From contig CAZUBW010000005.1 in the NCBI GenBank assembly GCA_964618645.1, positions 15,870-79,869 on the forward strand: a stretch of DNA of 64,000 nucleotides, given 5' to 3'. Below are positions 22,050 to 47,088 of this stretch, one piece after another. The translations under genes were made by a program, and so were the position numbers. Source of the DNA: an uncultured Bacteroidales bacterium. Its GTDB lineage: Bacteria; Bacteroidota; Bacteroidia; Bacteroidales; UBA10428. Within the stretch, counting starts at the first letter, position 1, and every line of letters begins with the position of its first letter. The notes under the pieces were generated by a model, which was not told the DNA's origin, made no database searches, and was given only the letters and a program-made list of their open reading frames with translations.

Positions 22050-22088
22050 GTAAAAGAAAAATCCCCACTGATACCTGTGAGGATTTTT
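22050..22088 (-). terminator. Intrinsic terminator after the tRNA
   Basis: Minus strand: AAAAAUCCUCAC-AGGUAUC-AGUGGGGAUUUUU followed by CUUUUAC. The stem has one G.U pair. Confidence 0.65.
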
Positions 22089-22091
22089 GAG

Positions 22092-22164
<73 letters not shown>

Positions 22165-22184: not shown

Positions 22185-22434
22185 CGCTAATTTTTTATCA
22201 GAAAAAAATTGTTTTGTAATAAAAACACATATTCATTAAATGTATCTGTGGCGAAAGGGCATACAATACCCACATCTGTTTTATTCAGTGTAGTTTTCTA
22301 AAAATTGCCCGGGTTTGTATTTTTCGTGAGGCCATTTTTCAACATATATGTAGAATATATGCCATTGGGGGATTGTATTTTACAGAAATAGCCTAAATTT
22401 GGTATGAATAGGTAAAAAATGTTTGTTGGTAATA

Positions 22435-22944
22435 ATGACCTTATATCGCAATAAATACCGTGTTGAAACCACCCGTCTGCAAAATTGGGACTATGCATCA
22501 GATGGCAGATATTACATTACCATATGCACCAAAAAACGTGAACAATTTCTGGGAAAAATTGAAAAGGGTGTAATGATATTGAACAAACGTGGACGAATTG
22601 TTGAACAATGTTGGTTTGATCTGGAAAAACATTACCATAATTTACGATTGGACGCATTCGTAATTATGCCAAATCATATTCATGGAATAATGATCATTGA
22701 CAATTCCACCATCGTAGAGACGGGTTTCAAACCCGTCTCTACCCACGGGATATTTGAATTCGTGCGTGCATTCAAAACATTTTCATCGCGGCGGATAAAT
22801 GAATTGGATAATACCCCAGGCAGAACACGATGGCAATCTCGATTTCACGACCACATCATTCGGTATGAACGGGAATTCATCAGAATTCAACAATATATAC
22901 GTGACAACCCATTGTCATGGGAAAATGATTCTATGAATTCCTAA
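22435..22944 (+). CDS. REP-associated tyrosine transposase (RAYT; IS200/IS605 Y1 HUH family, COG1943-like)
   Basis: 169 aa from the ATG at 22435. YRNKYRVETTRLQNWDYASDGRYYITICTK, HUH motif MPNHIHGIMII, C-terminal WQSRFHDHIIR and tyrosine helix IQQYIRDNP. Confidence 0.85.
   Translation: MTLYRNKYRVETTRLQNWDYASDGRYYITICTKKREQFLGKIEKGVMILNKRGRIVEQCWFDLEKHYHNLRLDAFVIMPNHIHGIMIIDNSTIVETGFKPVSTHGIFEFVRAFKTFSSRRINELDNTPGRTRWQSRFHDHIIRYEREFIRIQQYIRDNPLSWENDSMNS
22714..22742. repeat. Perfect 11-bp-stem palindrome inside the RAYT ORF (GTAGAGACGGG-TTTCAAA-CCCGTCTCTAC)
   Basis: Read directly. It encodes VETGFKPVST between the HUH and Tyr motifs and starts with GTAG. Confidence 0.95.
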
Positions 22945-22970: not shown

Positions 22971-22994
22971 TTGAGGACTTAATTCAGAAAAGAA

Positions 22995-24164
22995 TTACCC
23001 CTTTATAACCGCCAAAGGCGTTAATTCGACTACAATGTCTACCAGATCCTGCTGGTTTTTCATTACGATATCGATGTCCTTATACGCACCAGGCGCTTCG
23101 TCCAGGTCTTTTCTGTTTCGAATGGCATGTATGATATGTTGTTTATCCAGTCGTGCTATCTCCTCTTCCAGGCTTAAGGTGTTCTGAGCCATGGTTCTGC
23201 TTAAAGCCCTGCCTGCACCGTGGGAGCAGCTTTCAAAGCTCTCGGGGTTCCCTTTGCCTTTCACAATATAGCTTTTTGTGCCCTGTGAACCCGGTATAAT
23301 CCCGATTTCATCCAGCTTTGCACTTGTAGCACCTTTACGGTGCACAAGTACACTGTTGTTAAAATGGTTCTCCCAACGTGCATAGTTGTGCGCAATATTT
23401 ACAAAGTCCAGTTCAGCAAAATCTCCGCCCATTTCGGCTGTGAAAGAAGCCTTGATGTTTTCCATCATCAGCTTTCTGCTGGCAAAAGCAAAATCCACAC
23501 AGTATTGCATCTCTGTCATATAATCTTTAGCATCTTGCGACTCAATGGGCAGGAAAGCCAATTGCCATTTCGAAGATATTTGGGAATACCACCTTTCATT
23601 CAGCCTGACAGCAACCTGATTGTAATGTTCTGCAACCTTTAAACCAATATTCCGGCTACCGGAATGGATCATGATCCAGATATGACCATCAGAGCCTTTC
23701 TGAATTTCAATGAAGTGATTACCGCCACCCAGCGTTCCTACCTGTTTTAAGGATGCTTCATACTGCCTTTCAACAATTCCACCTTTTATTATATTTCCGG
23801 AATCGGGCATCAATGATTCATTTTGTTTTTCATTGTGGTGATTGAATCCTACCGGCACTTTATGGCGGATTTCACTCATTACTTTTTTCAAAACAGGTGT
23901 TTCGATAGTTGTCAGAGATGTCTTTAAGGCACACATGCCGCATCCGATATCCACACCCACAGCATTCGGAACAATTACGCCACGGGTAGCCAGTACACCT
24001 CCTATAGGCATTCCATAGCCCTGGTGACTGTCGGGCATAATGGCAATATGCCTGAATGCAAAAGGCAGGTTGGCCATATTTTTCGCCTGTTCCAAAGCAC
24101 CTGCTTCTATATCTTCAATCCAGAGTTTAATAGGGATTTTTTCTGTATTGATAATCTGTTTCAT
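22995..24164 (-). CDS. rtcB: RNA 3'-phosphate/2',3'-cyclic phosphate--5'-OH ligase RtcB
   Basis: 389 aa. MPDSHQGYGMPIGGV, GGGNHFIEIQ, HSGSRNIG, nucleophile-His block SCSHGAGR. Confidence 0.93.
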   Translation of the reverse strand: MKQIINTEKIPIKLWIEDIEAGALEQAKNMANLPFAFRHIAIMPDSHQGYGMPIGGVLATRGVIVPNAVGVDIGCGMCALKTSLTTIETPVLKKVMSEIRHKVPVGFNHHNEKQNESLMPDSGNIIKGGIVERQYEASLKQVGTLGGGNHFIEIQKGSDGHIWIMIHSGSRNIGLKVAEHYNQVAVRLNERWYSQISSKWQLAFLPIESQDAKDYMTEMQYCVDFAFASRKLMMENIKASFTAEMGGDFAELDFVNIAHNYARWENHFNNSVLVHRKGATSAKLDEIGIIPGSQGTKSYIVKGKGNPESFESCSHGAGRALSRTMAQNTLSLEEEIARLDKQHIIHAIRNRKDLDEAPGAYKDIDIVMKNQQDLVDIVVELTPLAVIKG

Positions 24165-24243
24165 CTGGTTAATTTCTGGTTTTCATAAACACTACAAGTT
24201 CTGCTTGCAGTTCTTAGTACTTTTCTGCTTGGATAACAAAGGT

Positions 24244-24275
24244 ATAAGACTTTGCCATTTGTGGCAAAGTCTTAT
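24244..24275 (-). terminator. Strong intercistronic hairpin between the slipin stop and the rtcB start (possible attenuator or processing site)
   Basis: A 14-bp perfect stem ATAAGACTTTGCCA-(4-nt loop)-TGGCAAAGTCTTAT starts 2 nt after the slipin stop. On the minus strand it is followed only by a weak U-rich tract (ACCUUUGUU). Confidence 0.4.
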
Positions 24276-24276
24276 T

Positions 24277-25377
24277 TTACCTGGAAGTCGAGAAGATTTC
24301 TTTCAATTGGGTAAGAACCTGGTTGCCCCCGGATAATGAAATGCTATTGATTTTATCTGCGATTTTTTCAATATATTCCATTTCTTTCAGTTTGAACAAC
24401 ATTTCGTTCTCCTCCAAAATTTTCGCTGTATTCAATAAACTTCTTGTAGAAGCAGTTTCTTCTCTTCTGGTTATAATATTGGCCTGAGCCTTTTTCTGTG
24501 CAATCAAAACCTGGTTCATGATATCTTTTACCTCGCCAGGTAAAACAATATCTCTTATTCCACAGTCTCTAATTTCTAAGCCAAGTTCAGCTGCTTTTCC
24601 CCTTAAAGATTCCATTACATATTTTGAGATAGATTCTTTCTTTTCGAGGATTTCATCCAAGGTTAATGTGCCAATGAATTCTCTTAAAGCTAATTGCATT
24701 AAAACATACAATTGCTTTTCATAATCCTTGTTTTCATTAATAGCCTTGACGATATCAACTACTTTGTATTGCGTGTAAAAATTAACTCTTAATGCAGCTT
24801 TATCTCTTGTCAGAATTTCCTGACCTGAGATTTCAAGTTGCAATTGCCTCATATCAGCCTTTGCAACATGAATTTTAGTTGCATTTTTCCAGTAATAATA
24901 CTCACCTGTTTCAATGGTCTTCTCGTATTTACCATCAATAAATAAGAGGGCCTTTTGATATGGTTCAACGGCAATTGTCCTTATATATGGGGCCAACTCT
25001 GGTCTCAGTAAAGTGTTCTTATCGATTTTTTCAGTAATCTCGAATTTATTCAAGTCCACATTAATGAAAGAATAGGTTGTTAAACCCTTCCAGAAGGTGT
25101 GTCTTCCTGGTGAAAGAATAGTTTTAAAGTTGCCATTTTCATACTGTAAGGCAATCTCATTATCACCCACTTCAACAACATGCAAATGTCTTGTCAATTC
25201 TTCATCCTTCAAAAGAATATTTAATTCTATTGTAGGATAGAACGGCTTGGCTAAATCATAAAGGAAAACCTTCTTGTTAGGGGTTATCCAATAGATTCCA
25301 TCGGTCAGCAATTTTTTGTAATTACCGCGTTTAAATACTAAACCAATTTTTCCTTTGTTCACAATAACTCGTTTCAT
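24277..25377 (-). CDS. SPFH/band-7 (slipin-like) protein without an obvious membrane anchor
   Basis: 366 aa. N-terminal ~170-aa beta-rich region, then an SPFH core (ISGQEILTRDKAALRVNFYTQYKVVD ... IRDCGIRDIVLPGEVKDIMNQVLIAQKKAQANIITRREETA) and a coiled-coil tail. Confidence 0.8.
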   Translation of the reverse strand: MKRVIVNKGKIGLVFKRGNYKKLLTDGIYWITPNKKVFLYDLAKPFYPTIELNILLKDEELTRHLHVVEVGDNEIALQYENGNFKTILSPGRHTFWKGLTTYSFINVDLNKFEITEKIDKNTLLRPELAPYIRTIAVEPYQKALLFIDGKYEKTIETGEYYYWKNATKIHVAKADMRQLQLEISGQEILTRDKAALRVNFYTQYKVVDIVKAINENKDYEKQLYVLMQLALREFIGTLTLDEILEKKESISKYVMESLRGKAAELGLEIRDCGIRDIVLPGEVKDIMNQVLIAQKKAQANIITRREETASTRSLLNTAKILEENEMLFKLKEMEYIEKIADKINSISLSGGNQVLTQLKEIFSTSR

Positions 25378-25761
25378 CTGATTAAATTTTAATTAAGCTG
25401 TCAAATGCAGCTTGTCCTTTCGGACTCGGTTTGAACTAATTGATAAGGTTGATAAATCAACAATAGAAAGCAGGTAAAGTAAAACCATCCTTTTTTTATG
25501 CGGAAATTCGATTAAGTAGTGCAAGTCCTTAAAGCCGCTAACATCAATAATCTGTAACAATTTGACCTAATATTATTAATGGCAGTTTGTTTAATTCTTT
25601 GCATAACTGGATCCTCAGTTTTCAAAGCATTAAAAGGACTGTTATTTAGCTCTTTAGTGATTCAAACAGGTTTGAAGAGAGAGCCAAAAACAAGTTTTGC
25701 TTTACCATGCTTTCAGGCGACAATTTTTACAAGTTGTCAGCTTAAGTTTGGATTTTTAAGT

Positions 25762-25890
25762 CCATTCCCGTGACAGGGGAGTGTAGGACTCGAACCTACT
25801 CGCCATGAGGCTTACCAATTGTTTGTTGCTCTAACCTGCTGAGCTATCCTAGAAGGTTTAGGAGAGGGAGTCGAACCCCCGACACACAAA
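25762..25890 (-). ncRNA. Candidate tRNA-like (circularly permuted, YrlA/Y-RNA-like) non-coding RNA; true ends unknown, possibly about 25700..25930
   Basis: Minus strand: TTTGT-GTGTC-GGGGG-TTCGACT-CCCTC-TCCTA-AACCTTC-TAGGA-TA-GCTC-AGCAGGTTA-GAGC-A-ACAAA. This reads as anticodon-stem 3' strand, variable loop, T-arm with canonical TTCGA loop, 5-bp acceptor-like stem capped by a 7-nt loop, U8-like TA, D-arm with a GG loop, and anticodon-stem 5' strand pairing back to TTTGT. A second T-arm (GTAGG-TTCGAGT-CCTAC) plus a capped stem (TCCC-CTGTCAC-GGGA) follows at 25799..25762. There is no ORF, and it has the same orientation as slipin-rtcB. Confidence 0.5.
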
Positions 25891-26101
25891 TGCGGGCGAA
25901 AACAAGCAAAAGGCAAAGCAGCATATTAAACCACAGTGTGAAGTAATACTATGAAGCCATTCAGAGACTTTCATCAGGTCCTGGCCTTTCTGTTTTTCCC
26001 ACTCTTCCGGTTAAGGAAGACTTTTTTCCCGAAAGCATCGGGAGATATTTTAGTTCAAAGAACGATTAACCTTTCAAATACGTGACAAAGATTATACATA
26101 A

Positions 26102-26123
26102 CTGCGCAATCAATATGCGTAGT
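26102..26123. promoter_or_regulatory. Operator-like inverted repeat in the divergent WYL/ncRNA control region
   Basis: CTGCGCA-atcaata-TGCGTAG. The half sites are CTGCGCA and CTACGCA, matching 6/7. It lies 29 nt upstream of the WYL start codon. Confidence 0.35.
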
Positions 26124-26136
26124 TGATTATTTTTTT

Positions 26137-26144
26137 TATTTTTG
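26137..26144 (+). promoter_or_regulatory. Candidate -7 box TATTTTTG for the WYL regulator gene (would give a leaderless or very short-leader mRNA)
   Basis: Exact TAnnTTTG match ending 7 nt before the ATG at 26152. Confidence 0.35.
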
Positions 26145-26151
26145 ATAAAAA

Positions 26152-27177
26152 ATGCCTTTAAATAAGAATGCACTTATACGATATAAGACTATTGATAAGT
26201 GTTTACAAAATCGCTACAGACGATGGACACTCGAAGATTTAATTGATGCATGCTCGGATGCCTTATATGAATACGAAGGGATTAATTGCAGTATTGGGAA
26301 AAGGACTATTCAGGCTGACATCCAATTAATGCGAAGTGATAAACTTGGCTATAACGCACCCATAAAAGTTACGGACAGAAAGTATTACATTTATGAAGAT
26401 CCGGATTACACTATAACAAATATCCCGCTTACGGAACAAGACTTAAACAAATTGACTGAAGTTACAGAGATACTTAAGCAGTTTAAAGGATTTTCACATT
26501 TTGGTGAGCTAAGTGTCATGGTTCAAAAACTTGAGGATAAGGTTTATGCTGAAAGAGAAAAACAAAAGCCCGTTATTGATATTGAAAAGAATGAGAATCT
26601 CAAAGGACTGGAATACCTGGAAGTTCTGTATCAGTCTATTTTAAAGAAACAAGTTTTAAATATATGGTATCAGTCGTTTAAAGCAAGAAAGTCAGGTAAA
26701 ATAGTTCTCCATCCTTATTTGCTGAAAGAATACCGGAATCGGTGGTTTATTCTAGGAAGAAAGGGCGCCCAGCAACCTATAATAACTTTAGCTCTTGATA
26801 GAATTTATGAAATTGCGCAGAATACTGAGGTTGTCTTTATAGGAGACGAAAAATTTAACCCTGATGAATATTACCGAGATGTTATTGGCGTGACTGTTAA
26901 TAGTAACCGGCCAACCAATATACATCTTTTTGTCGATAGAGAGAACGCGCCTTACATACTTACCAAACCACTGCATCATTCACAGCAAGTGATATCGGAA
27001 ACAGCGAATGGTCTTGAAGTAGTAATAAAGGTGATACCCAATTTTGAACTAGAGAGGGAGATTCTTGGTTTTGGTGAAAGTATACAAGTAATATCTCCTC
27101 TTAAGTTTAGCGTAAGAATACAACAGCGACTACAACAAGCAATTAGTAATTATGCACAAAATAGCAAGTCAATTTAA
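26152..27177 (+). CDS. wHTH-WYL-domain transcriptional regulator
   Basis: 341 aa. N-terminus MPLNKNALIRYKTIDKCLQN..WTLEDLIDAC is typical of Bacteroidota WYL regulators. WYL core IVLHPYLLKEYRNRWFILGRK. C-terminal extension domain. Confidence 0.8.
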   Translation: MPLNKNALIRYKTIDKCLQNRYRRWTLEDLIDACSDALYEYEGINCSIGKRTIQADIQLMRSDKLGYNAPIKVTDRKYYIYEDPDYTITNIPLTEQDLNKLTEVTEILKQFKGFSHFGELSVMVQKLEDKVYAEREKQKPVIDIEKNENLKGLEYLEVLYQSILKKQVLNIWYQSFKARKSGKIVLHPYLLKEYRNRWFILGRKGAQQPIITLALDRIYEIAQNTEVVFIGDEKFNPDEYYRDVIGVTVNSNRPTNIHLFVDRENAPYILTKPLHHSQQVISETANGLEVVIKVIPNFELEREILGFGESIQVISPLKFSVRIQQRLQQAISNYAQNSKSI

Positions 27178-32619: not shown

Positions 32620-35600
32620 ATGGAAGTAAGGGCTTGGGAAGAAACAGTTGTTATTCCGACATATGGTACCGGATCTCCCGAGAAGAATCCGGTGTTCCTG
32701 GAAAGGAGGGTTTACCAGGGAAGCAATGGCAGCATATATCCGTATCCGGTAACGGAGAAGATACTGGATGAGAAGGAAAACAAACCGTGGCAGGCACTGT
32801 TTCTCGAAAACCGTTACCTTAAAATTTTGATTCTGCCTGAATTAGGGGGACGCATACAGATGGCCTACGACAAAATCAAGCAACGTCATTTTATATACTA
32901 TAACAGTGTTATTAAGCCTGCCTTGGTGGGATTGACCGGGCCCTGGATTTCCGGGGGCATAGAATTCAACTGGCCCCAGCATCACCGGCCCAGCACTTAT
33001 ATGCCGGTAGATTATTCCATCGAGGAACGTGCAGACGGGCGTAAAACAGTGTGGTGCAGCGAAGTTGAACGGATGTTTCGCACCCGCGGCATGACGGGCT
33101 TTACGTTGTATCCCGATAAGGCTTACCTCGAGATAAGCGTCAGCCTTTACAACAGGACACCGCATCCCCAAACCTTTTTGTGGTGGGCAAATCCGGCAGT
33201 GAAGGTAAACGATGCGTACCAGTCGGTTTTTCCACCCGATGTAAATGCTGTGTTTGATCATGGCAAAAGGGATGTATCCAGGTATCCTGTCGCTACAGGA
33301 ACGTATTATAAATACGACTATTCGGCCGGTGTGGATATATCGCGCTATAAAAACATACCGGTGCCAACGTCTTTTATGGCCATCAAATCGGCATACAACT
33401 TTGTGGGAGGGTTTGAGAATGATACCCGCGGAGGTTTGTTGCATATTGCTAATCACCATATTTCACCGGGTAAAAAGCAGTGGACCTGGGGTAATGGCGA
33501 TTTTGGCAAGGCCTGGGACCGTAACCTGACCGATTCCGATGGACCATACATTGAGCTTATGTGTGGTGTTTACACCGATAACCAGCCCGATTTTTCATGG
33601 CTCATGCCTTACGAGGAGAAGTCGTTTTGCCAGTATTTTATGCCTTATCGCGACCTGGGGGTGGTAAAGAATGCGACAAAGGAAGCCATGGTTAATCTTG
33701 AATTTGCACACGGCAAGGCCACTGTAAAGGTCTATTGCACGGCGGTGTATCCTTCAGCAAAGGTAGTACTGAAGAAAAGCGATCAGCTGTTGTTTGAAGA
33801 AACCTTTGATTTTACCCCTGAACAGTCCTTTGAAAAGATCATTGATCTGAAAGAGCCGGTTATTCCGCATGAATGGTTTGTTTTGGTGTTTTCGGAGCAA
33901 GGCAGGGAACTCGTTTGCTGGCGTCCCGAAAAAGAAGAGATCAGGCCCATACCTGACCCGGCAAAACCTGCCGGAAAACCATCCGATATTTCGAGTATTG
34001 AACAACTGTATTTAACCGGACTTCACCTGGAACAAAATCGGCACGCCACATATAATCCTATTGACTATTATCTCGAGGCGCTGGCCCGTGAACCCGGAGA
34101 TGTGCGAAATAACAATGCTATGGGCCTGTGGTTTTTACGCAGGGGCCAGTTTACCAAGGCTGAATTCTATTTCAGGGCAGCCATTGCCACGCTTACTGCC
34201 CGAAATCCCAATCCATATGACGGTGAACCCCTGTTTAACCTTGGTCTCTGCCTTAGATTTCAATACCGGTATAACGAAGCCCGGGATGCATTTTACAAAT
34301 CGGTTTGGAATGCTGCGTGGCAGGATGCCGGGTATTTTAGCCTGTCCCAGCTTGCCGCCATGGAAGGTGAATGGGAGGAAGCCCTTGAACTGGTTTGCCG
34401 GTCACTCATCCGTAACGGGCATAATCATAAGGCACGGCACCTGAAAGTTGCCATACTGCGCCATTTGAATCGCGGTGATGAGGCTTTGAAACTGGCAGAT
34501 GAATCACTGGAGATTGATAGCTTTAATTTTGGGATATTGTTTGATAAATACCTGATAACAAAGCAGAAAACCGATTTACGGGTGATTAAAAAACTGATCC
34601 GTGACAATGTCCAAAACTACATGGAATTTGCGCTAGACTATGCTGCAGCTGGTATGCTGAATGAAGCAAAGTCGTTGCTCGAAATCAGTGTAGCTGATGT
34701 TCCCGATACATACCCGATGATGTACTATTTTTTGGGCTGGTTTGACTGGCTGGCAGGTGATATTTCCGGTGCAACAGCGCGTTTTGGGGTGGCGGAAACC
34801 CAGGATCCAGCCTTTTGTTTTCCGAACAGGATTGAGGAAATGCTTGCGCTGCAATGTGCCATAAAACATAATCCAAACGAATCAAAGGCTTCCTATTATC
34901 TTGGTAATTACTGGTATGCCGGAAGGCAATTCGAAGAAGCCATTCAATGCTGGGAAAGAGCAGCTAATGCGGATGATAACTTTCCGACTGTACACCGGAA
35001 TCTGGCATTGGCATACTTCAATAAGCTGAAAGATGCAGCCCGTACAGTTGAAGAACTCGAAAAAGCTTTTTCTCTCGATACAACCGATGCCCGTATACTT
35101 ATGGAACTGGATCAGCTGTACAAAAAGCTGGGCAAATCATATGACCATCGTCTGACAAACCTTGAAAAATATGCTGAGGTTGCTGACTATCGCGATGATT
35201 TATACCTGGAGAAAGTTACCTTATACAACCTGCTGGGGAATAATGAAAAGGCCCTGGAGTTGCTTATGAGCCGGAAATTCCATCCCTGGGAAGGAGGCGA
35301 AGGCAAAGTCACCGGGCAATACCTGCTTGCATGTACCGAACTTGCCAGAAAGGCTATTGGCCTGAAGGATTATAAGCTCGCACTCTCGCACCTGAAGGCC
35401 TCACTGGTTTATCCAAACAACCTGGGCGAAGGTAAATTGTGCATGGCACAGGAAAATGACAGCTATTACTGGATGGGCTGTGCGTATGATGGACTGGGCG
35501 AAGCCGAAAAAGCGATTGCCTGTTGGGAAAAGGCTGCCGTAGGCATATCAGAACCCACCGCGGCCATGTTTTACAATGATCAGCAACCCGATAAAATCTT

Positions 35601-35913
35601 CTACCAGGGATTGGCGCTTATTAAGTTGGGAAGGACGGGTGAAGCATACAGCAGATTCAATAAGCTCAGGGACTATGGAGAGAAACATCTGTTTGACATA
35701 GTTGAAATTGATTATTTTGCCGTTTCATTGCCCGATTTGTTAATCTGGGACGATGACCTGACAAAACGCAACGAACAACATTGCCATTACCTGATGGGTT
35801 TGGGTTACCTGGGACTGGGAGCAAAAGACAAGGCAAAGGAATTCTTTACACGGGTGCTCAATGCCAACCCTTATCATACCGGCTGTTGGTTACATCGCAC
35901 CTATTGTGCCTGA
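32620..35913 (+). CDS. DUF5107 domain plus TPR-repeat protein (function unknown)
   Basis: 1097 aa. N-terminus VRAWEETVVIPTYGTGSPEKNPVFLERRVYQGSNGSIYPYPVTEKI matches the DUF5107 family start as I remember it. The C-terminal half is TPR-like. Confidence 0.7.
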   Translation: MEVRAWEETVVIPTYGTGSPEKNPVFLERRVYQGSNGSIYPYPVTEKILDEKENKPWQALFLENRYLKILILPELGGRIQMAYDKIKQRHFIYYNSVIKPALVGLTGPWISGGIEFNWPQHHRPSTYMPVDYSIEERADGRKTVWCSEVERMFRTRGMTGFTLYPDKAYLEISVSLYNRTPHPQTFLWWANPAVKVNDAYQSVFPPDVNAVFDHGKRDVSRYPVATGTYYKYDYSAGVDISRYKNIPVPTSFMAIKSAYNFVGGFENDTRGGLLHIANHHISPGKKQWTWGNGDFGKAWDRNLTDSDGPYIELMCGVYTDNQPDFSWLMPYEEKSFCQYFMPYRDLGVVKNATKEAMVNLEFAHGKATVKVYCTAVYPSAKVVLKKSDQLLFEETFDFTPEQSFEKIIDLKEPVIPHEWFVLVFSEQGRELVCWRPEKEEIRPIPDPAKPAGKPSDISSIEQLYLTGLHLEQNRHATYNPIDYYLEALAREPGDVRNNNAMGLWFLRRGQFTKAEFYFRAAIATLTARNPNPYDGEPLFNLGLCLRFQYRYNEARDAFYKSVWNAAWQDAGYFSLSQLAAMEGEWEEALELVCRSLIRNGHNHKARHLKVAILRHLNRGDEALKLADESLEIDSFNFGILFDKYLITKQKTDLRVIKKLIRDNVQNYMEFALDYAAAGMLNEAKSLLEISVADVPDTYPMMYYFLGWFDWLAGDISGATARFGVAETQDPAFCFPNRIEEMLALQCAIKHNPNESKASYYLGNYWYAGRQFEEAIQCWERAANADDNFPTVHRNLALAYFNKLKDAARTVEELEKAFSLDTTDARILMELDQLYKKLGKSYDHRLTNLEKYAEVADYRDDLYLEKVTLYNLLGNNEKALELLMSRKFHPWEGGEGKVTGQYLLACTELARKAIGLKDYKLALSHLKASLVYPNNLGEGKLCMAQENDSYYWMGCAYDGLGEAEKAIACWEKAAVGISEPTAAMFYNDQQPDKIFYQGLALIKLGRTGEAYSRFNKLRDYGEKHLFDIVEIDYFAVSLPDLLIWDDDLTKRNEQHCHYLMGLGYLGLGAKDKAKEFFTRVLNANPYHTGCWLHRTYCA

Positions 35914-35950
35914 AAAAACCGTCTGTAGTTGTAAAATAAACTATCATCCT

Positions 35951-38413
35951 ATGAAGCACAAGGCCATTCATTTCTTGAGAAGAGCGATACAATTCGTCTT
36001 TTTAGTCGCGGTTATAAGCAGTCAGGCGTACACCCAACAGACCTATGTTATTGATGTTACCGGCGCTAAGCCCGATATACTGAAGGGACATCTCGACCTT
36101 GGCGGGAAAAGCATTACCGGCGAAAGCATCGAAGTAAATAATTTTTACATTGAGCGGAATGGCAAACCATACTTCCCGGTGATGGGAGAGTTTCATTATT
36201 GCCGCTATCCGAACCAATACTGGGACGAAGAAATAAAAAAGATAAAGGCCGGCGGTGTTAATACGATTGCCACTTATGTATTCTGGATCCTGCATGAGAC
36301 AAAAGAAGGGGTCTTTAATTGGGATAATGACCTGAATCTCCGGAAATTCATTGAGTGTTGTCAGCAAAATGATGTGGAGGTAATTGTCCGCATAGGCCCC
36401 TTTGCACATGGTGAAATGCGGAACGGCGGGTTGCCGGACTGGCTTTACGGGCGTCCTTTTGAAGTTCGTTCCAACGATCGCGGCTATTTGTTTTATGCCA
36501 ACCGGCTATATCAACAAATTGCGCAGCAACTTAAGGGTTTGTATTTCAAAGATGGAGGGCCCATTATCGGCATCCAAATCGAGAATGAATACCAGCATTC
36601 GGCGGCGCCCTGGTCGCTCACGTATACCGGAAGCAAACACGAGTATACAGCAGCACGCTTTGACCGGAAAATCATTCAGGCCGGTGTAGGCGTTAATGAA
36701 ATGGGGAATGATTACAACGCTTATGGGAAAAAGCATATGGAAACCCTGAAAGAAATGGCCAAAAATGCCGGAATGGATGTGCCCATTTATACGGCAACAG
36801 GCTGGGGTTTTGCCAGTATTGTCGAAAATGGGTCTATTCCAGTTATGGCAGGATATGCCTATCCTACCTGGGTGGAAAGAGACATTCCTTCAAATTTTTA
36901 TTGTTATAAGGACTTACGCAAAACTCCCGATTATGCCCCGGTGAGTTATCATACAGATTTGTATCCCTCTTTTGCGGCAGAGCTGGGCACCGGCATGGTC
37001 GTCAGTTACAATAAGCGTCCACGGGTTCCGGGAGAAAGCTTTTTGCCCATGATGGTACGCACCCTTGGAAGTGGCACAAACGGACTTGGTTATTACATGT
37101 ACCATGGCGGAACTACGCCGTCGGACGGAAACCTTTTTTATACCGAGGGATTTGGATACCATAAAAAATCATATGACTATCAGGCACCCATTGGAGAATT
37201 CGGAACCCTCAGTACCGGTTTTTATGGCCTGAAACTGGTGAATTACTTCTTACAGCAATATGGCGACCGGTTGGCACCACTCCCCACGATATTACCGGAA
37301 ACAAACAGTAAGATATTGCCTGATGATACCGTAACGCTCCGATACGCGGTACGAAGTGATGGAAATAGGGGCTTTGTGTTTATGCACAATTTCCAGGATC
37401 ATGCGAGCATGCCTGACCTCAATAACCTGAATATTAGTATTAATACCACTGATGGGGAGATCACCATCCCCGAAAAGGGTAGTTTTGACCTGAAGACCGG
37501 CACCTCCATGATACTGCCTTTCAACCTGAACCTCGACGGATTGCAGATCAAATATGCCACTGTTCAGCCGTTGTGTTCCTTTTCAAATAATGGCAGCCTT
37601 TATCATGTGTTTTGGTCGGCTGACGGGATAATCCCGGAAATTGTTTTTTCAGGTGCTGTTCGTGTAAAAACAGTAGGGCCGGTGATTACCCGCCGATCGG
37701 GAAACACTTTTGTAACAGGGGTTAACGGTAAAACCTTTGAATGCATTGTGAATGTTTCAGGACAACCAGTGCATTTTCTTGTTTTGCCCATGGAAAAAGC
37801 ACTCCATTCGTATCTGACAGGCAATCGTGGTGGTCAGCACCTGGTGATCAGCGATGCATTGGTTTTACAGGAGAAAGATTCAGTATGCCTTATAAGCGTA
37901 GGCAAAAGCAACTGGAATATTGAAGTTTATCCGGGTGTGCGTTCTCTTCAATCACCGGAAGCAATGCTGCAGCTTATGAAAAGCGCGAACCCGGGCATGG
38001 CTGTTTGGAACATCAGCGTGAACAAAGAAATTCCGGACATTACCCTTACCCGTACCGATGACCGTCATTATGTTTTAAATGCCAGGAATCTTGATCTGAA
38101 AAACCTGAATGATGTTTTGTTGAAAATGGATTATGTGGGTGACCGTGCATTGTGTTTTATCAATGGGGAGCTTGAAACGGACAACCTGAATATTGGCGAA
38201 CCCTGGTTGATTGGATTGAAACAATATGCCAGGAAGCTTCAGACGCATGAAATGTATTTTTATTTCCTGCCTATGCAAAGTGATGCGCCTTACCTGCATT
38301 ATTTTGATAAAACCATGCTACCTGATTTTTCCCATGGGAATGACTATCTGAAAATTAACGCGCCAGAAATTATCCCGGAATATAAGGTAAGGCTACACAT
38401 AAGTTCAAATTAA
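35951..38413 (+). CDS. GH35-family beta-galactosidase-like glycoside hydrolase, secreted
   Basis: Start moved to ATG 35951 (MKHKAIHFLRRAIQFVFLVAVISSQAYT signal). GKPYFPVMGEFHYCRYP, NTIATYVFW, RIGPFAHGEMRNGGLPDWL, acid/base IQIENEY. Confidence 0.82.
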   Translation: MKHKAIHFLRRAIQFVFLVAVISSQAYTQQTYVIDVTGAKPDILKGHLDLGGKSITGESIEVNNFYIERNGKPYFPVMGEFHYCRYPNQYWDEEIKKIKAGGVNTIATYVFWILHETKEGVFNWDNDLNLRKFIECCQQNDVEVIVRIGPFAHGEMRNGGLPDWLYGRPFEVRSNDRGYLFYANRLYQQIAQQLKGLYFKDGGPIIGIQIENEYQHSAAPWSLTYTGSKHEYTAARFDRKIIQAGVGVNEMGNDYNAYGKKHMETLKEMAKNAGMDVPIYTATGWGFASIVENGSIPVMAGYAYPTWVERDIPSNFYCYKDLRKTPDYAPVSYHTDLYPSFAAELGTGMVVSYNKRPRVPGESFLPMMVRTLGSGTNGLGYYMYHGGTTPSDGNLFYTEGFGYHKKSYDYQAPIGEFGTLSTGFYGLKLVNYFLQQYGDRLAPLPTILPETNSKILPDDTVTLRYAVRSDGNRGFVFMHNFQDHASMPDLNNLNISINTTDGEITIPEKGSFDLKTGTSMILPFNLNLDGLQIKYATVQPLCSFSNNGSLYHVFWSADGIIPEIVFSGAVRVKTVGPVITRRSGNTFVTGVNGKTFECIVNVSGQPVHFLVLPMEKALHSYLTGNRGGQHLVISDALVLQEKDSVCLISVGKSNWNIEVYPGVRSLQSPEAMLQLMKSANPGMAVWNISVNKEIPDITLTRTDDRHYVLNARNLDLKNLNDVLLKMDYVGDRALCFINGELETDNLNIGEPWLIGLKQYARKLQTHEMYFYFLPMQSDAPYLHYFDKTMLPDFSHGNDYLKINAPEIIPEYKVRLHISSN

Positions 38414-41313: not shown

Positions 41314-43200
41314 ATGAAGAAAATATTTGCTGGAATGATGTTTTTGTTATCCGCCCTGGGAATGTCGGCGCAACAAAACAAGGTAAGTCTGATACCGCAG
41401 CCCGTTGAACTGCAGGTAATGAATGGATCATGGACTCTCACCGGAAGCACATCGGTGGGCTACAATAAGCCGGAAGGTCGTAAAGTTGCTGAAATGCTGG
41501 TACAACAACTTAATCAGCCCACAGGGTTTAAAATTTCGGCAAAACAGGGAACAACAGCCGGCATACAGTTGAATATTAATGCCACTGCAGATACCAAGCT
41601 CGGTACCGAAGGCTATACGCTGGTTTCGGGTGCAAAAGGTGTTGTTATTACAGCCAACCAGCCGGCAGGTCTTTTTTATGGCATGCAAACCCTGCTTCAA
41701 CTATTGCCTAAGGAAATAGAGAGTAAGAAAACGGTTAAAGCCAGCTGGACAGTTCCTGCGGTGAAGATAACCGATTACCCGCGGTTTGCCTGGCGTGGAT
41801 TGATGCTCGACGTAAGCCGGCATTTCTTTACCAAAGCGGAAGTAAAGCGCTATATCGACGAGATGGTACGTTTCAAATACAATACCTTCCATTGGCACCT
41901 GACCGATGATAACGGCTGGCGTGTGGAAATAAAGTCGCTGCCAAAACTTACCGAAGTCGGTGCATGGCGTGTGGAGCGGCATGGTCAGTTTGGCAGCAGG
42001 CCCGATCCCAGGCCAGGTGAACCGGCTACATACGGCGGTTTTTATACCCACGAGGATATTCGTGAAATTGTACAATATGCCATGGACAGGCACGTCACCA
42101 TTGTTCCCGAGATTGATGTTCCGGGACACAGCATGGCTGCCATTGCAGCTTATCCCGAGCTAAGCTGCACCAAAAATCCAAATACCATGGTTAACCCGGG
42201 CACTAATTTTGCCGAATGGTATGGCAACGGCACTTTCAGGATGTTTATCGAAAACACACTGAATCCCTCGGATGAAAAGGTATATGAATTTCTCGACAAG
42301 GTATTTACCGAGCTGGCCCAATTATTCCCCAGTTCTTATATTCATGTGGGCGGCGACGAGTGTTACAAAGGCTTCTGGAAAAACGACAAGGGATGCCAGT
42401 ACCTGATGAAGAAATTGAATATCAGGCACGTTGAAGACCTTCAGGGGTATTTCATGAACCGGGTGGAAAAAATTCTCACCGACAAGGGCAAGAAGCTGTT
42501 GGGTTGGGATGAGATCCTCGAAGGCGGGATATCCCCCGGAGCAACCGTGATGAGCTGGAGAAGTATGGCCGGCGGTATTGAAGCCGCCCACATGGGTCAC
42601 GATGTGGTGATGACGCCAACCTCGCATTGTTATATCGACTATGTGCAAGGTGAGGCAACCATTGAACCTCCCATTTATGCGAGCTTGCGGATGAAGAAGA
42701 GCTACAGCCTGAATCCGGTTCCGGAAGGCGTAGATGCCAAACACATACTGGGCGGACAGGGGAATTTGTGGACCGAACAGGTAGCCACGCTACGACACGC
42801 CGAATACATGACCTGGCCGCGCGGATGGGCGTTGGCTGAAGTTTTCTGGACACCCGACGAAAACAAGAACTGGGAGAATTTTGTAAAGCGGGTGGAAAAT
42901 CAGTTTACCCGTTCGGATGTAGCTGAGGTGAAGTATTCAAAGGCTATGTACGATGCCATTATCCGTACCCGGATGAAGGATGGAAAACTGTGGGTTGAAA
43001 TGGAGCCGGAGGCACCCGGACTGGATATTTATTATACCATTGACGGCGGGATGCCTGACAATTTCTCTCCCAAATACACCCAGTCATTTGAAATTCCGGA
43101 AGGACCCGTAACGTTGCGTGTGATTACCTACCGCAACGGTGCACCCATTGGACACCTCATCACCCTGAAACCTGCCGACCTGAAGGCAAGGGCGGAGTAA
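41314..43200 (+). CDS. GH20 beta-N-acetylhexosaminidase
   Basis: 628 aa. Signal peptide, RGLMLDVSRHF, FHWHLTDDNGWR, HVGGDE, GNLW. Confidence 0.92.
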   Translation: MKKIFAGMMFLLSALGMSAQQNKVSLIPQPVELQVMNGSWTLTGSTSVGYNKPEGRKVAEMLVQQLNQPTGFKISAKQGTTAGIQLNINATADTKLGTEGYTLVSGAKGVVITANQPAGLFYGMQTLLQLLPKEIESKKTVKASWTVPAVKITDYPRFAWRGLMLDVSRHFFTKAEVKRYIDEMVRFKYNTFHWHLTDDNGWRVEIKSLPKLTEVGAWRVERHGQFGSRPDPRPGEPATYGGFYTHEDIREIVQYAMDRHVTIVPEIDVPGHSMAAIAAYPELSCTKNPNTMVNPGTNFAEWYGNGTFRMFIENTLNPSDEKVYEFLDKVFTELAQLFPSSYIHVGGDECYKGFWKNDKGCQYLMKKLNIRHVEDLQGYFMNRVEKILTDKGKKLLGWDEILEGGISPGATVMSWRSMAGGIEAAHMGHDVVMTPTSHCYIDYVQGEATIEPPIYASLRMKKSYSLNPVPEGVDAKHILGGQGNLWTEQVATLRHAEYMTWPRGWALAEVFWTPDENKNWENFVKRVENQFTRSDVAEVKYSKAMYDAIIRTRMKDGKLWVEMEPEAPGLDIYYTIDGGMPDNFSPKYTQSFEIPEGPVTLRVITYRNGAPIGHLITLKPADLKARAE

Positions 43201-43211
43201 AGTTTTATTAA

Positions 43212-44300
43212 TTAGAGTTTAGGGCTCCCTGATAATGATTCAAGGAGCCTTCGCCTGTCGGTTTTCATGGATTCGTTGCGGGGGATGTTGTCTACGATTA
43301 GCAATTCTTTGGGTCGCCAGCGAGTGGGGAGAAAGTCATCCAGCGCAGTTTTTATGGCAGACATCGGACGGTTGAGCTTTTCTTTTTCAAAAACAAGCAC
43401 CAGCTTTTGACCGAATTGTTTATCGGGCAATCCCAGTGCAATGCATTCGATGCCCGTTTTGGTCATGATAAGCGATTCCACTTCTTCGGGTACAATTTTC
43501 ACACCGCCGGAGTTGATGAGGTTATCGTAACGTCCCAACCAGGTAAAAACTCCGGGGGAGGTAAAGCGGATAATATCATTTGTAGTGACAGCGCCTGGCA
43601 GGTAAGCGGCATTGATAACAAGACATCCGCGGTCGTCGGCCGACAACGTTACACCGGGCATGGTATGGAAGGCCTTCTGTGGTGCCGGTCCGTTCAGGCG
43701 TCTGATGGCCACGTGCGAGCAGGTTTCGGTCATGCCATAGGTGGCAAAAACTTCGTTGGGTATTTTCAACAAGCTGGCTTCGAGTTCGTGGTTGATTTCG
43801 GCACCGCCGATGAGTAGCTTTTTTACGGGGTTGAGATCGGTACGACATAAAAGCAGGTTTGAAACCTGCATGGGCACCATGGCACAGAGATCGATCCGTG
43901 GGTGACCCGACAGGTCGGGGGTGCTTCTGGGCGCTGTGGTCAACAGGTTCATGTCATTAACAAAACAGCGGACGATCATCATTTTGCCGGCAATGTATTC
44001 CACTGGCATACAAAGGAGGGCTGTGTCACCAGCTTTCAGTTGCAACAGGTTGCAGGTATTCCGGGCCGATATCGTCATACTGTTCTTCATCAGCTTTATC
44101 TCTTTGGGTTTTCCGGTAGTGCCCGAAGTATAAAGCATCATGAAATCATAGTCACTAAGCCAGTTGATGATGAACCGGTGAATCTCTTTTTCCCAGGGTT
44201 CGGTATCGGCCGATACAATCTGGTCGCTGCTGAAATGCAAAAGCTCCCTGAAGTTGTAATAGGTGCCGTTGATCGTTAGTCCCTTCTGCCAGTCTCCCAT
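43212..44300 (-). CDS. menE: O-succinylbenzoate--CoA ligase
   Basis: 362 aa. Short AMP-binding enzyme (LYTSGTTGKPKEI, YGMTE) at the distal end of the men operon. Confidence 0.85.
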   Translation of the reverse strand: MGDWQKGLTINGTYYNFRELLHFSSDQIVSADTEPWEKEIHRFIINWLSDYDFMMLYTSGTTGKPKEIKLMKNSMTISARNTCNLLQLKAGDTALLCMPVEYIAGKMMIVRCFVNDMNLLTTAPRSTPDLSGHPRIDLCAMVPMQVSNLLLCRTDLNPVKKLLIGGAEINHELEASLLKIPNEVFATYGMTETCSHVAIRRLNGPAPQKAFHTMPGVTLSADDRGCLVINAAYLPGAVTTNDIIRFTSPGVFTWLGRYDNLINSGGVKIVPEEVESLIMTKTGIECIALGLPDKQFGQKLVLVFEKEKLNRPMSAIKTALDDFLPTRWRPKELLIVDNIPRNESMKTDRRRLLESLSGSPKL

Positions 44301-44303
44301 GGC

Positions 44304-45362
44304 TTATTCAAGTTCAAATGCCGAAAGTTCCCATTTGCGGTCGGGGTCGAAACACAGTCGTTCACCATGTAAAAACAGGGGCGACCGTATGTTATTCTGA
44401 TAGAGCGAGCCGGTACTGAGGCCATGGTAGATCTGATTTTGAAGGGTATAGGTCCATTGAGCAATGGCATTCAGACCAATGTTGGTTTCCAGTGCCGAGG
44501 TTATCCACCATTGGATATTTCTTTCACGTGCCAGGGTGATCCATTCCCGGGTGGAGGCCAGTCCCCCCAGCAGGCCAGGTTTCAATACCAGGTATTGTGG
44601 TTTAATGGTATTCAGCATTTTAATACGGTTGGCCATGCTGTGCAGGCCAATCATTTCTTCGTCGAGGGCAATGGGCACGGGTGACAGTTCGCACAACCTG
44701 GCCATATCGTCGACACGGCCTGCAGCAATGGGTTGTTCAATACTGTGCAGGTCAAATTCCGAGAGTAGTTTGATTATTTCGAGGGCTTCGCGGGGTTTGA
44801 AGGCTCCATTGGCATCGAGCCTGATTTCAAGTTCGTCAGGCGTACAGGCATTGCGGATGAATTTAAGCACTTCGAGCTCTTCATCGAGGTCCAGTGCCCC
44901 GATTTTCATTTTGAGGCAGGTAAAACCGTCGTTCAGTTTCTGCCGGACCTGCCTGATCATATCTTCTTTACTGCCCATCCAGATGAGCCCGTTAATGCTG
45001 ATGGTGTCGATGCCTTCGGTAAAGTCCGATGGGTATAGAATCCTGTTGCCGTTTAACCGGATGTCCTTCCAGGCTGTTTCGAGCGCAAAGCTGATGGAAG
45101 GCCATTCCGAGAGACTTGTATCGGCGAGGTAATTGCCCTGGTTAATGCGCTCCACGGTTTGATTGAGCTTATCGGTGAAGCCTTTGACGTCGTCGTAACT
45201 GAGACCGGGAAACAGTGAACATTCGCCAATTCCGGCAATGGATGGCTCCTCGGTGTGATACAACACAATAAAATGCACTTTTTTGCTGGCGTAAGTGCCG
45301 CGGGAGGTTGTTGCCGGACGCTGAAACCGAAATTCGGTGTGAATGGTTTTTGCCTTGATCAT
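44304..45362 (-). CDS. menC: o-Succinylbenzoate synthase (enolase superfamily)
   Basis: 352 aa. MR/MLE-type barrel (LKMKIG, RLDANGAF, IEQP, LDEE). Operon context. Confidence 0.82.
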   Translation of the reverse strand: MIKAKTIHTEFRFQRPATTSRGTYASKKVHFIVLYHTEEPSIAGIGECSLFPGLSYDDVKGFTDKLNQTVERINQGNYLADTSLSEWPSISFALETAWKDIRLNGNRILYPSDFTEGIDTISINGLIWMGSKEDMIRQVRQKLNDGFTCLKMKIGALDLDEELEVLKFIRNACTPDELEIRLDANGAFKPREALEIIKLLSEFDLHSIEQPIAAGRVDDMARLCELSPVPIALDEEMIGLHSMANRIKMLNTIKPQYLVLKPGLLGGLASTREWITLARERNIQWWITSALETNIGLNAIAQWTYTLQNQIYHGLSTGSLYQNNIRSPLFLHGERLCFDPDRKWELSAFELE

Positions 45363-46267
45363 GGGATGATTAAACCTAAACCAAATGTAAATGAGAATGC
45401 GAATGTCCCAATGGCCAGTTTTTTTAATTCCGGGTTCAGGTCACCCGGATTGGTGTTTTTAAGCACTACAATGGCATTATGGGCAAAAAGAGGACAGGTA
45501 AGGATAAACAGGAACTGGTAAACGGAGTGAAACCGGAGCAAGGTGTACAGGAGTGAGGAAGCAACGGAAAGTACCAGGAGTGAAAGGTGATATATTTTGG
45601 CTGCCTTGCTGCCAATATGCACTACCAGTGTGTTTTTTCCCGAGAGGGCATCATTTTCGATATCGCGCATGTTATTCAGGTTCAAAACGCCGGAACTCAG
45701 CAGACCTATGGCGGCAGCCGGCAGCAGAACCAGCGGATCGAAGGTGAGGGTGTGCAGGTAATAGGTGCCGGCCACCCCGACAATTCCAAAGTAGAGAAAA
45801 ACGAAAATATCGCCCAGCCCGATGTAACCGTAAGGATTCCTGCCAATGGTGTATTTTATGGCGGCGTAAATGGCCGAAAACCCTAGTACAAAGAAGAAAA
45901 GAATGATTTTCCAGTTGATATGATGTAAGCCGATGAAAATGAGCGTTGAACCGGTTATCAAGGCGAGGGTAACAAAAACACCGATCATGATCCGCATCTG
46001 CCTGCGGGTAACCAATCCACTTTGGGTGATCCTGAGCGGGCCAATGCGGTTTTTGCTGTCGGTACCATGGGACGCATCACCATAATCGTTGGCCAGGTTC
46101 GAAAGAACTTGCAGGAACAATGTGGTGAGGGTGGCGAGTATAAAAACATACCAGCGGAAATTACCCTGGGCATAGGCCAGAAAACTTCCGAGAATGGCAC
46201 TCGAAAGCGCCAGCGGAAGGGTGCGAAGCCTGAAGGCATGTATCCATATGTTGAGGGTGCTTGTCAT
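45359..46267 (-). CDS. menA: 1,4-dihydroxy-2-naphthoate polyprenyltransferase
   Basis: 302 aa. UbiA-family polytopic protein, [11 protein letters not shown] (NDxxD). 4-bp overlaps with both neighbours. Confidence 0.9.
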
Positions 46268-47088
46268 GGCAGCTTGGGATACTTGTTAAAATCGGGTTTT
46301 CTTTTCTCAAGAAAGGCCTTTTTTCCTTCCTGTGCTTCGTCGGTCATGTAATACAGCATGGTGGCATTGCCTGCCAGTTCCTGTATGCCTGCCTGTCCGT
46401 CGAGTTCGGCATTCAGGCCAGCTTTGATCATGCGCAGGGCAAGCGGACTGTGCTCCATCATCTTTTTGCACCAGGCCACAGTTTCGTTTTCCAGGTCGGC
46501 CAGGGGAACCACTTTGTTCACCAGGCCCATTTCCAGCGCCTCTGAGGCGGTATATTGGCGGCACAGAAACCAGATTTCACGGGCTTTTTTCTGGCCTACT
46601 ATACGGGCCAGGTACGACGATCCGAAACCGGCATCGAAACTGCCCACCCGGGGACCTGTCTGGCCGAATATGGCATTTTCCGAGGCGATGGTCAGGTCGC
46701 ACACCACATGCAAAACATGACCTCCACCAATGGCATATCCGTTTACCATGGCCACAACAGGTTTGGGAATGGAGCGAATCTGCTTCTGCAGGTCGAGTAT
46801 GTTGAGCCGGGGTACACCATCCTTGCCGATGTAACCGGCATAGCTTTTTGCGTGCTGATCGCCTCCGCTGCAAAATGCTTTATCGCCTGCCCCGGTGAGT
46901 ACAACAACTGAAATGTCAGGATTTTCGCGGCAATGGGCCATGGCATCGCACAATTCTTTTGTGGTGTCGGGGGTAAACGCATTCCGGTACCGGGGTCTGT
47001 TGATGGTGATCCGGGCAATGCCTTCGAAGTAATCGAACAGGATTTCCTCGTAATTCTTAATGGTTGTCCAGTTTCTCATGGTTGCCAT
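46264..47088 (-). CDS. menB: 1,4-dihydroxy-2-naphthoyl-CoA synthase
   Basis: 274 aa. Crotonase fold. [37 protein letters not shown]-terminal PDFNKYP. Confidence 0.95.

Follow-up and report, generated by a model that had tools for sequence, protein, structure and literature searches.

In Salmonella, the Y RNAs sit inside the rsr-yrlBA-rtcBA operon and are summarized in a preprint as operon-embedded RNAs that can be processed into trans-acting non-coding RNAs (ncRNAs) (bioRxiv 10.1101/312249), and the activator RtcR senses tRNA fragments (PMC7790460). By the account of the same preprint, Burroughs and Aravind (2016, NAR 44:8525) predicted a second arrangement, in which RtcB lies beside a Band-7 gene and an ncRNA under the name of b7a-tRNA, for 'band-7-associated tRNA'; the preprint describes b7a-tRNA as strongly resembling an authentic tRNA, mentions that YrlA is occasionally adjacent to Band-7, and presents the prediction as one without experimental validation (bioRxiv 10.1101/312249). 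Here we analyze a cassette from an uncultured Bacteroidales bacterium (contig CAZUBW010000005.1; the 64,000-nucleotide (nt) stretch that was analyzed is called the window), in which a tRNA-like RNA, a soluble SPFH/Band-7 (slipin) gene and rtcB are divergent from a gene for a WYL regulator.

A preliminary description of this locus had proposed an RNA-repair module and knew of no described RtcB-slipin-tRNA-like RNA system. Its finding is real, but it misdescribed the extent of the RNA and overstated the novelty. The preprint cited above was the one relevant source in the literature searched on RtcB together with SPFH or a tRNA-like RNA, on b7a-tRNA, and on WYL in combination with RtcB. As summarized there, the kind was computationally predicted in 2016 (bioRxiv 10.1101/312249), and Pfam names RlaP, which is encoded in relatives of the cassette, as an RNA-repair protein. 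The window thus holds a member of an already predicted RNA-repair kind, in its 'YrlA-like next to Band-7' flavour, and the part of the cassette most likely to be new is its large RNA.

The RNA is about 580 nt long, contains 19 covarying helices plus an additional hairpin, and lies directly 5' of the SPFH gene on the same strand (25462..26045, minus strand). It is followed on the minus strand by the SPFH gene (24277..25377, 366 aa) and by rtcB (22995..24164, 389 aa), and the gene for the WYL-WCX transcription regulator (26152..27177, 341 aa) is divergent from this operon on the plus strand. In the interval between SPFH and rtcB, a scan for terminator-like structures also finds a hairpin with a perfect 14-bp stem, which overlaps the stop codon of SPFH (24244..24275, minus strand). 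The three genes, including the lack of a membrane anchor in the SPFH protein, and the hairpin are all where the preliminary description had placed them. We do not count this hairpin among the conserved elements of the cassette, because the T-run after its stem is weak and the spacer between SPFH and rtcB varies from 29 to >500 nt in relatives.

The extent of the RNA is defined both by similarity and by covariation. The leaders upstream of SPFH resemble one another from approximately position 26045 of the window to a point some tens of bases short of the start codon. We aligned the full leader from 31 loci (alignment A2) and tested a structure of 19 helices with 106 pairs. Standard pairs are found in 87.7% of cells across the 31 sequences, compared to 41–47% when the partners were slid by 1–3 columns, and the covariation score is 0.527, compared to 0.10–0.16 in the slid controls. 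Both-side (compensatory) changes occur at 92 of the 106 pairs, and none of 500 shuffles attained any of the observed measures of pairing or covariation. Moreover, a profile hidden Markov model (HMM), trained on 26 loci from which the window and its four closest relatives had been excluded, matches the window from 26025 to 25462 as a single continuous hit (E = 6e-59); this model finds no second copy of the RNA in the 64-kb window. The preliminary description had recognized an element of ∼130 nt (25890..25762) followed by a 380-nt untranslated spacer. The tRNA-like nature of the element is borne out (it comprises a first tRNA-like module, a second T-arm and an anticodon-like arm, 25890..25749), but its extent is not: it is part of the ∼580-nt RNA, which reaches ∼135–155 nt further upstream, to ∼26025–26045, and the presumed spacer is conserved and base-paired, including an 18-bp covarying long-range helix (25714..25694 with 25486..25466).

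Read 5' to 3' on the minus strand, the RNA begins with two hairpins, P0 (26045..26025) and P1 (26019..26004), and a 5' domain (25912..25987, helices 2–5), in which a closing helix, P2, surrounds two further hairpins (GUUUC..AUGGC and AGUGU..AUAUGCUG). The helices of this domain are 79–97% paired, with compensatory changes at 19 of 23 pairs, and the strings GUUUC..GC and AGUG..AUAUGCUG in its hairpins are near-invariant. The first tRNA-like module (25822..25890, helices 6–9) is a YrlA-type permuted cloverleaf consisting of a closing stem, a T-arm, an acceptor stem closed by a loop, and a D-arm. Its helices are 93–100% paired, and its invariant columns (U8/A9, A14, G18/19, A21 and the T-loop GGTTCGAnTCC) are the universal core bases of tRNA. 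A long-range pairing of 5' CUUC with GAAG, proposed by RNAalifold, was rejected and replaced by the local hairpin P1 and the pseudoknot stem S1.

The second tRNA-like module (25749..25799, helices 10 and 13) is truncated in the window, where it consists of T-arm 2 (25799..25783), a mini-hairpin that takes the place of the acceptor stem and D-arm 2 found in most relatives, and an anticodon-like stem-loop (25765..25749) with the loop CUUAAAA. Helices 11–12 are absent from both the window and locus L003, in which module 1 is also set apart from T-arm 2 by an insertion of ∼20 nt, UGGUAAGCCUCAUGGCGA (25821..25800 in the window); what is missing from two other loci (L032 and L034) is T-arm 2 along with the first strand of helix 11. 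The form of module 2 in the window and L003 (25821..25800 and 25782..25767) is a lineage-specific remodelling. The 7-nt anticodon-like loop fits CU-NNN-AA, with a triplet that differs by genome (GUA, UUU, GAA, CAA, GUU and others). Downstream is an H-type pseudoknot (25719..25744, helices 14–15) formed by UAAG/CUUG and GACAA/UUGUC with an AAAAA loop, in which AAG, CUU and AAAA are invariant or nearly so. The remainder, the 'spacer' of the preliminary description, is a 3' domain of ∼250 nt (25466..25714, helices 16–19) closed by the 18-bp helix P16. This helix covaries, from GAAAGCAG/CUGCUUUC in one group of loci to GAAAGUAG/CUACUUUC in another. Motifs of the domain are GGAUCC in the window (GGAUACCG in most relatives) and UUCCG..GAUGG, with a U-rich stretch after P16. 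P16 is separated from the SPFH start codon by 33–40 nt in roughly half of the loci and by 88 nt in the window; because this gap is so short, the RNA and the SPFH gene very probably form one transcription unit.

We compared the RNA with known families by searching the window against Rfam release 15 in sensitive mode, and found that it has a permuted tRNA-mimic module in common with YrlA, yet is neither YrlA by Rfam criteria nor a tRNA. The YrlA model (RF02553, gathering score 69 bits) matches 25900..25796 on the minus strand with 35.8 bits (E = 5e-6), with the middle stem of YrlA deleted in the alignment, and the tRNA model (gathering score 29) reaches 20.1 bits. The part that is present is the permuted tRNA-like domain of YrlA (T-arm, loop-closed acceptor stem and D-arm). 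Similarly, six of six relatives tested match YrlA through the tRNA-like core only (model positions 23–88, 31–42 bits), which indicates that the RNA has no Ro-binding stem, and the YrlA gathering score was reached in none of the 13 loci scored. In some loci, the Rfam tRNA model gives 29–47 bits on pieces of the leader. ARAGORN finds no tRNA in 25300–26200, and the only gene that ARAGORN and Rfam at gathering level report is a tRNA-Met at 22091..22164 (minus strand). The alternative fold of a linear tRNA, with pairing between the two acceptor hairpins, was also tried and rejected: such pairing is found in 54–59% of cases, which is background, compared to 96% for the local hairpin. It is the core-only YrlA match below the gathering score, together with linear-tRNA pairing at background, that sets the RNA apart from both families. 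Thus the view that the core of the element is a tRNA mimic like YrlA holds in the window and in the six relatives, and the Rfam check that had been suggested for 25650..26000 gives the YrlA-like core but neither a YrlA nor a tRNA at gathering level. No other Rfam family, including ROOL and GOLLD, matches the RNA even at E ≤ 10. Beyond the YrlA-like core, the RNA is absent from Rfam 15; its extended architecture may be new, and there is good support for the RNA as a candidate new family of Rfam.

If the genes and the RNA had come together by chance, we expected that their synteny would be absent from related genomes. A genome scan with the SPFH protein yielded 80 loci in the Bacteroidota, from the Bacteroidales, Cytophagales, Chitinophagales, Flavobacteriales and Saprospiraceae. 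By RNA profile, 76 of the 80 loci, and 76 of the 76 informative ones, have the RNA immediately upstream of SPFH and on its strand; the four misses are loci without upstream sequence or with a truncated SPFH gene. A same-strand RtcB gene follows SPFH in 46 of the 65 loci with at least 3.5 kb of downstream sequence, and a WYL gene is upstream and divergent in 38 of 66. The cassette is therefore a genuine, widely conserved syntenic unit of the Bacteroidota, and the worry that the gene trio and the RNA might not be syntenic in relatives is contradicted across several orders. The downstream RtcB proteins fall into two clades, with 25–37% and 63–86% identity to that of the window, which points to displacement of the ligase inside a fixed syntax. 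RtcB proteins of the distant clade are also longer (466–488 aa in L004, L018 and L047) and have N-terminal extensions. In IMG/VR viral contigs, there is no true match for either the SPFH protein or the RNA pattern.

Related cassettes contain accessory genes, of which none occurs in the minimal cassette of the window. In such loci, two tandem RlaP nucleotidyltransferases lie between SPFH and RtcB (Pfam PF10127, whose title is 'RNA repair pathway DNA polymerase beta family'), and an RNaseH_like protein (PF04308) and an AAA ATPase also occur among the accessory genes of relatives (L047:6191-7994, L047:3867-4355, L043:7360-7929 and L043:8214-9362).

Genuine tRNA genes are a further feature of the family. 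According to ARAGORN, 36 of the 80 loci have same-strand tRNA genes within 3.6 kb upstream of SPFH, 106 in all (L047:1615-3020, L048:1262-2659, L057:2303-3539, L046:2532-3330, L068:1346-4246 and 31 other loci). The arrays hold up to 13 genes and are dominated by Tyr, Gln, Phe, Lys, Leu, Glu, Asp and Asn; Ala and Thr are missing, and a single Trp lies beyond 3.6 kb (L040). Several loci have a tRNA gene that directly adjoins the structured RNA at its 5' end, and in the window no tRNA gene lies between the WYL gene and the RNA. The arrays look like a spare-tRNA set that moves with the repair cassette. The tRNAs for Tyr, Gln, Lys, Glu, Asp and Asn are classic targets of anticodon nucleases, and the same-strand arrays point to a joint 'replace and repair' response against such nucleases.

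RtcB, annotated as an RNA 3'-phosphate/2',3'-cyclic-phosphate to 5'-OH ligase, matches Pfam PF01139 over the full length of the model (E = 8e-112), has relatives in the PDB (E = 1.5e-47) and appears active, judging from its complete metal- and GMP-binding motifs (DIGCG, GGGNHF, HSGSR, AHNY and HGAGR). The SPFH protein contains a Pfam Band_7 domain at residues 137–307 (E = 2e-33), matches stomatin, QmcA and HflK in the PDB, and has 6,763 homologues at E ≤ 1e-5, for which the NCBI name is 'slipin family protein'. It has an isoelectric point of 8.9 and no transmembrane segment, with a maximal Kyte-Doolittle average over 19 residues of 1.05. An AlphaFold2 model of its N-terminal 178 aa (predicted local distance difference test (pLDDT) score 89) contains three five-stranded beta units; the canonical SPFH domain begins with the third, of which the first two are sequence repeats. 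From the N to the C terminus, the protein comprises these three beta repeats, the SPFH core and a long helix. Foldseek searches with the SPFH models gave local SPFH matches only, and matches to the major vault protein (MVP) were not significant (E = 0.01 with the whole, low-pLDDT model and 0.17 with the N-terminal one).

The regulator contains the Pfam domains WYL (E = 1e-10) and WCX (E = 2e-8), and the PADLOC WYL model PDLC01457 spans its residues 46–317; a sequence search found no relative of it in the PDB, and PADLOC on the cassette gave generic WYL models only. In Cytophagales relatives, the WYL-WCX regulator is fused C-terminally to a PhyH-type Fe(II)/2-oxoglutarate dioxygenase (Pfam PF05721, E = 1e-11 to 1e-13; L004:2116-4050 and L018:2387-4114, both on the minus strand). 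The inverted repeat that the preliminary description had called operator-like is conserved: the palindrome CTGCGCA-N7-TGCG(C/T)AG is found 30–55 nt before the WYL start codon in about 36 of 40 related loci, and occurs in the window as a single copy, CTGCGCA-N7-TGCGTAG at 26102..26122, between the divergent units. The -7 promoter consensus of the Bacteroidota is TAnnTTTG. Candidate -7 boxes of this type that we read off the sequence flank the palindrome on both sides, TATTTTTG for the WYL gene (26137..26144, plus strand) and an imperfect TAATCTTTG for the RNA-SPFH-rtcB unit (26096..26086, minus strand), and TTTG is found at a similar distance from the palindrome in relatives. A scan for sigma-70 promoters gave fewer matches than in shuffled sequences and is therefore uninformative for Bacteroidota. 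Because the -7 boxes flank the palindrome, the operator would overlap both -33 regions, and we infer from this overlap that the WYL protein may repress both units.

We give somewhat better than even chances to the reading that the cassette is a minimal member of the SPFH/Band-7, tRNA-like RNA and RtcB class of repair systems, that is, a WYL-controlled, damage-inducible response to tRNA damage in which resealing by RtcB is assisted by a ribonucleoprotein (RNP). A WYL-WCX dimer would bind the palindrome and repress both promoters until a nucleic-acid ligand derived from damage binds the WYL domain. Upon derepression, the RNA would be transcribed together with SPFH and rtcB, as we infer from the 33–88 nt that separate it from the SPFH start codon in most loci. 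The RNA, whole or processed, could then form an RNP, by analogy with Ro60 and Y RNA, in which the SPFH protein, basic and without an anchor, would be assembled as an oligomeric ring or cage. The tRNA-shaped modules might recruit tRNA-handling enzymes, or present or decoy substrates, while RtcB would reseal tRNAs cleaved by anticodon nucleases or other ribotoxins, and the neighbouring tRNA arrays of relatives would provide replacement tRNAs. Several observations weigh against this reading. The candidate promoter boxes are imperfect matches to the consensus, and residues 1–150 of the WYL protein give no Pfam match to a helix-turn-helix (HTH) domain at E ≤ 0.01. The full-length model of the SPFH protein is poor (pLDDT 62), and the putative RNP with SPFH is deduced solely from strict adjacency. 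Finally, 19 of the 65 loci (29%) have no RtcB within 5 kb downstream, and for this reason the invariant RNA-SPFH pair may have a role that is not strictly tied to ligation.

A bolder version of the repair reading, which we put forward tentatively and consider possible rather than probable, gives the RNA the central role. In this version, the neighbour of the soluble SPFH gene in Bacteroidota would not be a small b7a-tRNA or YrlA but a previously uncatalogued large RNA of ∼560–620 nt and 19 helices, with a 5' domain, two permuted tRNA mimics, a pseudoknot and a ∼250-nt 3' domain. It would be the obligate partner of SPFH in an organelle-like RNP assembly, would function towards damaged tRNAs as a bait, a sensor or a scaffold, and would travel with spare tRNA arrays. 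A rival view, that the RNA is mainly a cis-acting element, a huge 5' leader that acts as attenuator or damage sensor for the SPFH-rtcB mRNA, seems to us unlikely, even though it accounts for several features. The RNA is always on the same strand as SPFH, and the 33–40 nt between P16 and the start codon in about half of the loci are too few to accommodate another promoter; in many loci, UUUU comes after the 3' strand of P16, whose last bases are ...GCUUUC, as in a terminator, and the anticodon-loop mimic could serve as nuclease bait. P16 and the U-rich stretch might terminate or mask the transcript, with cleavage of the tRNA mimics by anticodon nucleases, or their binding by tRNA-binding factors, altering read-through or mRNA stability. 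However, the U-tract is not universal, with at least 5 U in the first 8 nt in just 6 of 31 loci, and ∼580 nt with 19 helices goes far beyond the needs of known cis-regulators. Moreover, the Y RNAs of rsr-yrlBA-rtcBA, as the preprint summarizes them (bioRxiv 10.1101/312249), are a precedent for processing into trans-acting ncRNAs, and cis and trans roles can coexist.

Two further explanations start from the resemblance to tRNA. The order of elements (T-arm, 3' strand of the acceptor, loop, 5' strand of the acceptor, D-arm, anticodon arm) is the topology of a permuted tRNA gene, the anticodon-like loops carry signatures like those of tRNA, with triplets similar to those of adjacent tRNA arrays, so the modules might be circularly permuted tRNA precursors that need to be cut and joined by RtcB-type ligation, with RtcB as the maturation enzyme. 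We regard this as very improbable: the acceptor-like stems span just 5–6 bp, the short loops that close them lack CCA, an anticodon loop is entirely missing from module 1, module 2 of the window has neither acceptor stem nor D-arm, the modules are set within conserved non-tRNA domains, and RtcB is missing from 29% of the loci. The preliminary description had itself considered that the arrangement might be a chance juxtaposition with the decaying remnant of a tRNA gene, for which covariation would be absent. This idea has some appeal, given that genuine tRNA genes often lie just upstream and that the Rfam tRNA model reaches 29–47 bits on parts of the leader in some loci, but it is effectively refuted by the linkage in 76 of 76 informative loci from several Bacteroidota orders, by the compensatory changes at 92 of 106 pairs, by the background level of linear-tRNA pairing (54–59%), by the failure of ARAGORN to find a tRNA at the element, and by the match of a profile HMM built without the window to 26025..25462 (E = 6e-59).

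The genomic setting bears out the suggestion of an AT-rich islet next to a tRNA gene and a RAYT-like gene, and the cassette is a discrete unit. Nucleotide homology to the nearest relatives (L001 and L002, 70–84% identity) is limited to 22994..27098, with unrelated flanks on both sides, and the GC content of ∼21.9–27.3 kb is 33–40%, compared to 45–53% outside. The tRNA-Met(CAT) gene found by ARAGORN and Rfam (22091..22164) is on the operon strand; a terminator-like hairpin (22088..22057) comes after it. Between it and rtcB lies a RAYT-like gene (22423..22944, plus strand), which scores below the curated cut-offs of both NCBIfam REP_Tyr_transpos (61 versus 80 bits) and Pfam Y1_Tnp (22.6 versus 23). 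Metagenome contigs with an identical cassette frequently stop right beyond the RAYT gene. In agreement with the reported absence of RtcA and archease, neither these nor Ro/TROVE or RlaP were found in the cassette or in the 22 flanking open reading frames (ORFs) tested with Pfam between 9 and 47 kb, a scan confined to this interval, away from the window's outer parts, and within it to ORFs other than those at 32620-38413 and at 41314-43200. The flanking ORFs tested encode housekeeping enzymes. A run of genes resembles a menaquinone biosynthesis cluster (43212..47088, minus strand), with AMP-binding, enolase-C-terminal, UbiA prenyltransferase and enoyl-CoA hydratase proteins (MenE/MenC/MenA/MenB-like), which is ordinary chromosomal context without relation to the cassette.

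Large bacterial ncRNAs such as ROOL and GOLLD occur near tRNA genes and have hundreds of nt and many helices. The RNA described here is likewise hundreds of nt long, with many helices and an association with tRNA genes, but it is tied strictly to one protein gene, was not found in IMG/VR viral contigs and has no Rfam match to them at E ≤ 10. In the eukaryotic vault, the shoulder domain of MVP is SPFH-like, and the particle is associated with vault RNA and with TEP1, which has a TROVE domain. As an analogy, the SPFH protein has the vault-like order of a beta-repeat array, an SPFH-type domain and a long helix, and it is genetically coupled to a structured RNA, although neither of the Foldseek matches to MVP reaches significance (E = 0.01 and 0.17) and a cage is hypothetical. 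The regulator resembles BrxR, CapW, DriD and PafBC, the wHTH-WYL-WCX proteins of defence and damage operons, in its combination of WYL and WCX, in its divergent placement and in the conserved palindrome at the promoter. It differs from them in having no PDB relative by sequence and no Pfam match to an HTH, and in the PhyH fusion of some relatives.

The kind predicted by Burroughs and Aravind is the closest match to the cassette as a whole: RtcB adjoins a Band-7/SPFH gene, which in turn adjoins a tRNA-like ncRNA, and RlaP in the relatives L047 and L043 follows the same predicted repair syntax, although RlaP-type accessory enzymes were not found in the cassette of the window or in the flanking ORFs tested. 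Compared to b7a-tRNA, as the citing preprint describes and summarizes it (bioRxiv 10.1101/312249), the RNA is less like a tRNA, with no ARAGORN match and 20.1 bits for the Rfam tRNA model, and the conserved unit is a multi-domain RNA of ∼580 nt.

With respect to Salmonella, the RNA is five times longer than YrlA, scores 35.8 bits against a gathering score of 69 and lacks the Ro-binding stem; neither Ro/TROVE nor RtcA turned up in the cassette or in the 22 ORFs tested around it, and the regulator is a WYL protein rather than RtcR, a sigma54/CARF activator. The RNA-SPFH family is a second, Ro-independent version of the tRNA-mimic RNA in RtcB operons. Because the linkage of one RNA to one protein is strict, the operator is clear, and there are members in cultivable Bacteroidota, the hypotheses of scaffold, decoy and sensor are directly testable in this family. 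Its cultured carriers include Ohtaekwangia kribbensis, Chryseosolibacter histidini, Flexithrix dorotheae DSM 6795, Winogradskyella thalassocola and Myroides spp. What it has in common with the Salmonella rsr-yrlBA-rtcBA system is an RtcB operon with an embedded tRNA-mimic RNA, a divergent ligand-sensing regulator, and the permuted cloverleaf of YrlA (RF02553), in the same order of T-arm, closed acceptor stem and D-arm.

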